64,000 bases of DNA from a virus, in the IMG/VR virus record IMGVR_UViG_3300045971_000354, positions 32,001 through 96,000 of that record; one strand, given 5' to 3'. The position numbers were made by a program, and so were the translations under genes. The notes under the pieces are model-generated. The model saw only the letters and a list, made by a program, of their open reading frames with translations, did no database searches and was not told the origin of the DNA. Below are positions 12,985-13,839 of the stretch, piece by piece. Within the stretch, counting starts at the first letter, position 1. Every line of letters begins with the position of its first letter.

Positions 12985-13410
12985 AGTATTATCTAGATGC
13001 AATGGTCACACTTTGCCCTGCCGGGCAAAGGAAAACTGGGCATTATCTGAGTGCTTTACAGTCACTAGCGTTAGAACTACTGTGCTACTACACAACGTAA
13101 GCGGTCATCCGGTACTTACTCGTTCAGTCTTTATACGACGGCAATTTACAAATATACGCTAATCATATTCGTAAATCCGGGAACCACTGTTCCCTCCTTG
13201 GGCTTTTAAAATTTATTTTCAAACAATCAAACCGCAAGCATTTTACGATCTTCGTCCTGTGAAGGATAGTGATTGAGTGCTTCTTGCAGCGAGAAGTCTT
13301 CGGAATCCAGTCGCCCGAGGCGCTGGTTACATGTGTACGCCACCCGATATATGCCGGTGGTAGCTTTAATTCTGCTTGTATTACTGGTGGTACGGTGTTA
13401 CTGGTGGTGC
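12985..13410 (-). ncRNA. Putative large structured non-coding RNA (~400 nt), family unknown
   Basis: The only long ORF-free gap in the window. About 10 stems, a three-way junction and an 8-bp pseudoknot. G-U wobbles in two stems work on the minus strand. Boundaries are approximate. Confidence 0.65.
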
Positions 13411-13839
13411 CTAGGATTTTTTGATTATGTGTGAGCCATGTACACGGACTTGTATATGTCCGTTATAATAGTCGTTTGATTCTAATACTTTGCGGTCGAA
13501 TTGTTCGCGGGCCTCAATGTACGATGTTTCTGATTTTGAGTTACAATAGTGAAGTATTTCACGGGTGAAGTTTTGAATGCCTAATGCTTCTATGTCTTTT
13601 GTAAGATTTGGGCTTGAACCCCAATACTCTTTCCAATCTGAGTCTATTTTGCTTCTGATTTTCTTTTTCTTTTTTGTGCCGTTCTTTAACGTTACCGTCT
13701 TGTAGGTCGTTTTACTAAATTTACTTAATTTTTTTCCAATATATTTTCTGCCGGACGGAACACATGTGATAATATATACAAATCCCACACATTCGTCCGG
13801 CAGTTCTTCTACCAAATGTCCTTGATAGGTCCAAGACAC
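13411..13839 (-). CDS. Stand-alone GIY-YIG nuclease-family protein
   Basis: GFVYIIT...RKYIGKK, YWGSS, FTREIL, a catalytic-type E and YYNG. Lys-rich insert. No C-terminal NUMOD domain. GTG start. Confidence 0.8.
   Translation of the reverse strand: MSWTYQGHLVEELPDECVGFVYIITCVPSGRKYIGKKLSKFSKTTYKTVTLKNGTKKKKKIRSKIDSDWKEYWGSSPNLTKDIEALGIQNFTREILHYCNSKSETSYIEAREQFDRKVLESNDYYNGHIQVRVHGSHIIKKS

Follow-up and report, generated by a model that had tools for sequence, protein, structure and literature searches.

The 64,000-nucleotide (nt) stretch analysed here, called the window below (positions 32,001 to 96,000 of IMG/VR virus record IMGVR_UViG_3300045971_000354), comes from an uncultured, freshwater T4-like phage and carries on its minus strand a gene for a small GIY-YIG nuclease, whose stop codon is followed directly by a large structured RNA. 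The gene is the last open reading frame (ORF) of a co-directional gp47-gp46 recombination block, which reads, 5′ to 3′, gp47, gp46, a 97-aa ORF, Hc1, the GIY-YIG gene and the RNA (Table 1). A preliminary description of this locus had proposed that the RNA supplies scaffold or specificity to the nuclease, as a ribonucleoprotein (RNP). We find that both parts are real and that their synteny holds, and also that each part occurs without the other. Our reading, to which we give a probability of roughly 0.6, is that these are two separate functional units, an autonomous non-coding RNA (ncRNA) and an RNA-independent nuclease, kept adjacent by synteny.

The 142-aa protein matches Pfam family PF19835 (SegE_GIY-YIG) across the whole profile (1-123 of 123; E 1.7e-32; 112.7 bits against a cut-off of 25). 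No second Pfam domain is present, the chain ending right after the catalytic domain, and Pfam finds no NUMOD, helix-turn-helix or zinc-finger DNA-binding tail in it. The protein had been described as a GIY-YIG catalytic domain only, with a Lys-rich insert, and so it is: the Lys-rich stretch forms the tip of a long beta-hairpin (residues 40-66) which belongs to the family profile. Pfam also confirms the contrast drawn with the window's other Seg-like ORF (56773-57333, minus strand, 186 aa), where NUMOD3 (E 3e-17) follows a Seg-like N-terminus. The further claim, that GIY-YIG domains normally depend on a separate module for specificity, was too strong, as T4 endonuclease II (136 aa) stands alone.

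Modelled with AlphaFold2 from 25 homologues (pLDDT 90.9), the protein shows the GIY-YIG fold. Structurally it comes closest to the catalytic domain of I-TevI (1ln0; Z 8.7, 82 aa, root-mean-square deviation 2.6), followed by PD-T4-3 (9u75, Z 7.3), UvrC-N (1ycz, Z 5.7) and T4 endonuclease II (2wsh, Z 5.3); these matches came from VIA-align, Foldseek against the PDB having yielded noise only, and a PDB sequence search with the protein gave no match at E up to 10. The Seg-type motifs GFVY, YIG, YWGSS and NFTREIL are found, together with E109 and N126; these two residues and Y22, Y33, R93 and E94 are invariant among the 25 homologues (43-69% identity), and the equivalent of I-TevI R27 seems, judged by eye, to be D68, likewise in other Seg-type sequences. 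PHROGs assigns the protein to phrog_447, named ‘NAD synthetase’, a label also borne by PSSM2_218 of P-SSM2 (145 aa, 34% identical to the window protein, E 1e-17), and which looks like a propagated mis-annotation. The family (phrog_447; PSSM2_218; T4-GC 213) has 538 phage records and is near-universal in cyanomyoviruses; hundreds of records in GenBank/RefSeq bear this label.

In homologous IMG/VR contigs conservation begins at the nuclease stop codon, on the same strand, as the preliminary description had it, and extends for about 460-520 nt, to around position 12890. The conserved block is present in more than 150 loci, and no minus-strand ORF of 40 aa or more lies within 12838-13410. An RNAalifold consensus of 34 homologues has 62 pairs, 42 of them with compensatory double changes, and changes as extensive as these suggest that selection acts on an RNA fold and not on DNA sites. 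The structured RNA first delimited within 12985-13839 is thus real, but that left limit omits some 95 nt of 3′ hairpins. The 5′ domain is the Rfam family RF01718 (Polynucleobacter-1), matched over all 141 model positions (1-141) at 84.4 bits against a gathering score of 37 (E 1.8e-16, cmscan) and in a single copy in the 143-kb virus record. An E-value scan of Rfam gives no match in the 3′ two-thirds of the RNA, which holds the twin-box domain, recognised by our own covariance model R1. The hairpin between the two boxes covaries (e.g. TTAGCCC/GGGCTAA, TTCACCG/CGGTGAA), as does the terminal stem (7 pairs, up to 16 double changes in the RNAalifold alignment); AT-rich spacers and mini-hairpins lie at the 3′ end.

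Known classes of RNA were considered for this element and set aside. Rfam, at gathering threshold and at E up to 10, returned RF01718 only and ARAGORN returned no match, which excludes a group I/II intron, tRNA, tmRNA, RNase P RNA or known ribozyme. A 5′ intron half or split host gene is excluded by the nuclease ORF abutting the Hc1 stop codon. Nor do we regard the RNA as a 5′-untranslated-region regulator of the next gene: many loci have convergent genes right after the RNA, and the gene that follows in the window is preceded by a late-promoter-like word of its own.

The two boxes carry the same 7-nt word. They are identical to one another in 241 of 278 loci, with 14 box variants between loci, and the loci departing from this pattern are mostly on truncated contigs. 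The boxes are the sole fast-varying segment at a conserved position and are far shorter than known guides; no target was identified for them, and no covarying partner was found inside the RNA. A U-rich region about 160 nt upstream was rejected as a partner, since it wobble-pairs with any box, and equally so in a mismatched control. The base 5′ of ACTC and of ATCT tends to match between the copies (C/C, G/G, A/A; alignment A3), so that the duplication may extend beyond 7 nt. Purine transitions separate all the common box variants from one another, apart from a single G-to-C change (AGATGAA/ACATGAA).

Within the phage clade, gene and RNA are closely linked. Among close relatives of the protein (80 loci, 66-84% identity) the RNA lies within 0-30 nt of the stop codon in almost all. 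Six of these have ample downstream DNA but no nhmmer match: five hold a divergent RNA with ACATGAA boxes, and in the sixth (L074; L numbers are our own locus handles) coding sequence continues instead. A set of 118 IMG/VR loci drawn by an RNA-only pattern has the gene directly upstream in nearly all with room, and this holds for versions of just 39-57% identity too. A minimal GIY-YIG gene with a structured RNA beside it is therefore a strongly conserved arrangement, seen in IMG/VR loci in both search directions. The surrounding synteny is common to about 190 loci: gp46 precedes on the same strand, and a T4_baseplate gene stands 3′ of the RNA on the opposite strand. Because the whole neighbourhood is syntenic, these linkage counts reflect shared ancestry, not many independent events. 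In several loci gene and RNA are separated by inserted ORFs of 0.8-2 kb. In L059 and L077 (~4430-4690) an ORF of about 80 aa with a zinc-ribbon-like, CxxC...CxxC-like motif lies there.

The nuclease also occurs without the RNA. We checked ten cultured phages with a homologue (Melnitz-3, ACP17, BUCT-ZZ01, P-SSM2, C48C1, V45v66, phiN3, S-SRM01, Bellamy and Bhz51), and in all ten there is no room for the RNA, the next gene being within 150 nt. nhmmer found no RNA match around the gene in any of them, model R1 reached at most 13.4 bits genome-wide (97.5 in the window) and the genomes of Melnitz, ACP17 and BUCT-ZZ01 contain no RF01718; blastn of the locus against cultured phages returned the Hc1 gene of S-SRM01 only, and no RNA homologue. 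In cultured phages the GIY-YIG gene sits at other genomic positions, often right after nrd genes (several homologues directly follow nrdA/nrdB), the place of denA on the T4 map. By maximum likelihood, the Melnitz protein, which has no RNA beside it, groups as sister of the RNA-linked L183 protein (support 100/99), inside the RNA-linked clade, and the tree implies at least 3-4 gains or losses of the linkage. Co-occurrence and co-phylogeny of gene and RNA thus break down, RNA-less homologues being common.

Equally, the nuclease beside the RNA can be exchanged. In an unbiased sample drawn via gp46 (80 loci, 57-79% identity) the slot after gp46 is filled by a nuclease in every locus with room, GIY-YIG in about 70 loci and PF24608 (PDDEXK_15) in three; among some 70 such loci there is no empty, endonuclease-free site. 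PDDEXK_15 replaces GIY-YIG, with the RNA kept, in L128, L132, L148 and L228. In all four the gene ends at the RNA start, and in L128 and L228 the family match is at E 1e-24 to 1e-29. The RNA beside PDDEXK_15 is intact (RF01718 at 93-115 bits) and has the same kinds of boxes, and no GIY-YIG protein of the window protein's family is encoded in the 89.5-kb L128 contig. Here one small nuclease displaces another that is not its orthologue. In the more distant relatives L281 and L282 a PDDEXK gene directly follows gp46 with no RNA nearby. The slot in L138 is occupied by a third, unassigned ORF (175 aa), and it is a MazG-like gene that precedes the RNA core in L105.

The RNA, in turn, occurs in bacteria. 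A 5′-motif pattern found 27 loci in GTDB genomes (L283-L309; e.g. L286, L287, L294, L299, L305, L307), in Polynucleobacter isolates, Limnohabitans and other Burkholderiales, on chromosomal contigs of up to 3.4 Mb. These loci hold full-length RNA with twin boxes (AGCGAAA, ATCGAA), and none of the 27 has a GIY-YIG or PDDEXK homologue. The RNA is thus met without the GIY-YIG nuclease both here and at the PDDEXK_15 phage loci. In bacteria it forms part of a three-part module: a divergently transcribed DUF6641 gene about 200 nt upstream, the RNA, and, 150-800 nt downstream and sometimes beyond an intervening ORF, a tyrosine recombinase of 188-195 aa consisting of the catalytic domain only. RF01718 was found in only 18 of the 151 Polynucleobacter genomes sampled (at times as two copies), so that we regard the bacterial RNA as an accessory element. 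The small recombinase family is present in 75 of the 151, often in multiple copies and mostly without the RNA; being so much commoner, the recombinase is not an obligate partner either, and the idea of an RNA-guided tyrosine recombinase, four times more widespread than its supposed guide, is weakened. A T4-type late promoter before the bacterial copies was rejected, as TATAAATA stands there in just 2 loci out of 25; the motif commonly seen is GCTAAATAA, resembling an ordinary -10 element.

Finally, the boxes do not track the nuclease. Pairs of loci at 90-99% protein identity share a box in 28% of cases, against a background of about 25%, and the same boxes are found beside PDDEXK as beside GIY-YIG genes, which together rule out that the boxes are read by the nuclease. 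The only guide-like variable segments are the twin 7-nt boxes, and they vary independently of nuclease sequence and type. With each part occurring alone, the nuclease swapped and the boxes independent of the protein, the proposal that the RNA acts as scaffold or specificity element of a nuclease RNP is for the most part not upheld.

Table 1. Features of the nuclease-RNA locus (window coordinates, unless a locus is named)
Feature	Position	Strand	Basis
SegE-type GIY-YIG nuclease, 142 aa, GTG start	13411..13839	-	Pfam PF19835, AlphaFold2 fold
Whole structured RNA (extended Polynucleobacter-1, ‘twin-box’), ~520 nt	12890..13410	-	conservation, covariation
5′ domain, Rfam RF01718 Polynucleobacter-1	13221..13365	-	cmscan, 84.4 bits
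Twin-box domain, outside all Rfam families	12980..13131	-	own covariance model R1, 97.5 bits, E 1e-22
Box 1, ACTC then AGATAAT	13042..13052	-	sequence
GC-rich hairpin between boxes, TTTGCCC-loop-GGGCAAA	13012..13030	-	sequence, covariation
Box 2, ATCT then AGATAAT (same word as box 1)	12988..12998	-	sequence
Two terminal hairpins, terminator-like, closing the RNA	12894..12937	-	sequence, covariation
Late-promoter-like CATAAATAG, at end of RNA unit	12864..12872	-	sequence; resembles T4-type late promoter
Hc1, 97-aa ORF, gp46 (Rad50-like), gp47 (Mre11-like), upstream of nuclease	13843..17101	-	Pfam
PDDEXK_15 genes in place of GIY-YIG	L128:3963-4484; L132:2614-3126; L148:265-771; L228 ~7229-7726		

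Upstream of the nuclease, Pfam identifies Hc1 (PF07432, E 1.7e-14), gp46 (SMC_N/AAA_23) and gp47 (Metallophos) on the same strand, and so the nuclease does end a gp47-gp46-hypothetical-Hc1 operon, as had been said. Beyond the RNA, words like TATAAATA occupy the same place as CATAAATAG in many aligned loci, and CATAAATAG may be a late promoter for the 221-aa ORF at 12172-12837. The protein of this ORF (minus strand) is Ala/Gln/Pro-rich and of low complexity, without a match in Pfam and PHROG searches; its N-terminus (MKINQILED...) resembles that of a 312-aa ORF 3′ of the RNA in L128. The 45-nt spacer between the nuclease stop codon and the start of RF01718 (13366-13410, minus strand) contains the direct repeat CACCAGTAA(C/T)AC twice, and is shorter in most homologues.

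The Polynucleobacter-1 motif was first described by Weinberg et al. (2010, Genome Biol 11:R31, PMC2864571), whose supplement places most examples downstream of GOS11034 genes ‘with possible homology to PSSM2_218’; as of 2010 no example was in any purified phage (PMC2864571). Because PSSM2_218 belongs to the window protein's family, the gene-RNA neighbourhood had already been noticed then. What was unrecognised in 2010 is that the GOS11034/PSSM2_218 neighbour is a GIY-YIG nuclease, and its identification as such also corrects the ‘NAD synthetase’ mis-annotation. In the literature searched, Weinberg et al. alone mention the motif, and a search on DUF6641 or any GIY-YIG-RNA system found no papers. 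The RNA of the window thus extends a known orphan motif, now delimited anew at greater length, and the nuclease adds a new member to a known family.

The SegE-type nuclease fills a conserved slot ending the early/middle gp47-gp46 operon of its phage clade, and we propose that it acts on DNA without the RNA, its role probably being in recombination or host-DNA processing and not in selfish homing. The ncRNA would most likely be made by read-through of the operon and be ended by its own terminal hairpins. It may then work in trans, offering two identical single-stranded words to a common reader, which could be either a nucleic acid or a dimeric protein. Several observations weigh against such a separation of the two parts. 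In most loci the RNA comes 0-30 nt behind the stop codon, a tight adjacency that still holds at protein identities as low as about 40% (L097, L099, L129, L172) and spans divergent RNA subtypes (e.g. the ACATGAA-box RNAs of L008 and L058); and all of the phage evidence is from metagenomic contigs of one clade. Moreover, in each of its three settings the RNA has as neighbour an enzyme that cuts or joins DNA and is pared down to its catalytic domain (GIY-YIG, PD-(D/E)XK or a 188-aa tyrosine recombinase), which could hint that they have an RNA partner in common.

Such a partnership might take the form of an RNP system, in which the twin-box RNA would be scaffold or guide for the adjacent minimal enzymes (GIY-YIG or PDDEXK in phages, the core-domain-less tyrosine recombinase in bacterial islands) and its boxes would pair with a short DNA word. 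Gene and RNA are tightly adjacent in hundreds of loci, all three enzymes are without a recognisable DNA-binding module, and the boxes are single-stranded, fast-varying and without a covarying partner inside the RNA; there is also the precedent of HEARO, an RNA from the same 2010 survey which reportedly proved later to be the IscB guide RNA. We nevertheless consider this distinctly improbable: one RNA for two or three unrelated folds would be unprecedented, a 7-nt guide would give little specificity, and the boxes do not covary with the protein, to which are added the RNA-less homologues in cultured phages (with Melnitz inside the RNA-linked clade), the recombinase being mostly without the RNA, and the distance, sometimes with an ORF between, separating the two in bacteria. 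The idea stays alive mainly because all three neighbour enzymes are reduced to catalytic domains. Highly improbable, in our view, is its broadest form, that the twin-box RNA acts as a general DNA-targeting cofactor which joined up, on separate occasions, with three minimal and mutually unrelated DNA enzymes (the phage GIY-YIG and PD-(D/E)XK proteins, and the tyrosine recombinase of Polynucleobacter/Limnohabitans islands), its identical 7-nt words pairing with a short core sequence carried by one DNA partner or by two; if true, this would be a new class of RNA-specified DNA cutting and joining.

The nuclease, or its PDDEXK counterpart in some phages, might instead be a free-standing homing endonuclease, a selfish Seg-like gene lodged beside a conserved RNA gene and cutting the copy of rival phages. 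Homing enzymes provide both the nearest Pfam family (SegE) and the nearest fold (I-TevI), two nuclease families with no relation to each other take turns at a single intergenic position next to a conserved sequence, and the window holds another Seg-like gene, with NUMOD3. In T4, segB cuts in the tRNA cluster, and segF and hef, unrelated endonuclease genes, share one T-even locus. We seriously doubt this explanation. Because the gp46-drawn sample contains no empty sites, a sporadic homing gene is disfavoured, and the protein has no DNA-binding tail, belongs to a family that is near-universal in cyanomyoviruses, strongly conserves catalytic and other residues, and lies in conserved synteny inside an operon; in L281 and L282, moreover, the PDDEXK gene follows gp46 with no RNA for it to stand beside. 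The RNA, for its part, could be a cis element: a replication-origin or primer RNA (of the R-loop type, as at T4 oriF/oriG or ColE1 RNA II), or else an element at the 3′ end of the operon that serves packaging or stability, with iteron-like boxes; host islands would then keep a copy as a means of exploiting or blocking the phage. This would suit its presence once in each phage genome, where the early recombination operon meets the late structural genes, the direct repeats flanking a hairpin, the AT-rich spacers and 3′ mini-hairpins, and the homologue beside a recombinase in accessory islands of likely host genera. We hold it to be improbable, since the compensatory changes point to an RNA fold and not to DNA sites, the bacterial copies are chromosomal with an apparent promoter of their own, and no initiator-like gene is linked.

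Thus a nuclease-RNA machine as proposed is unlikely, while the RNA itself is a worthwhile target. It is among the larger and more ornate orphan RNAs of bacteria and phages, with only its first third catalogued, and its conservation extends across hundreds of uncultured T4-like phages of fresh water and to accessory islands of bacteria abundant there. Whether such an RNA and a nuclease are partners bears on the search for new RNA-guided enzymes. Here the obvious candidate partner is dispensable and interchangeable, and this shifts attention to the RNA, to the twin boxes that vary in step and to its sharing between phages and host islands.

Considering known systems, the RNA of the window is closest to Polynucleobacter-1, with which it shares the freshwater/Burkholderiales habitat and whose full model is matched by its 5′ 145 nt; the Rfam model spans only about 1/4 to 1/3 of the conserved RNA, and the twin-box core and terminal hairpins are uncatalogued in Rfam. 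The nuclease shares the Pfam family of its domain with the N-terminal domain of T4 SegE and has its closest fold in the catalytic domain of I-TevI; whereas the Seg proteins and I-TevI are homing enzymes, the window protein is tail-less and fixed in synteny, not sporadic. T4 endonuclease II (DenA, PDB 2WSH) is likewise a phage-encoded, stand-alone GIY-YIG protein of about 140 aa with a hairpin-like insert and no separate DNA-binding domain, though the two have no detectable sequence similarity (structural Z 5.3). The IscB/TnpB omega-RNA systems likewise place a nuclease gene beside a large, conserved, structured RNA on the same strand. These are transposon-borne, their proteins are of RuvC type with RNA-binding domains, and a variable guide of about 16-20 nt lies at one end of the RNA; to our knowledge, protein and RNA always co-occur in them. 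In the phage and bacterial loci described here, unlike IscB/TnpB, the parts occur separately, the variable words are 7 nt long and duplicated, and the nuclease fold is interchangeable.

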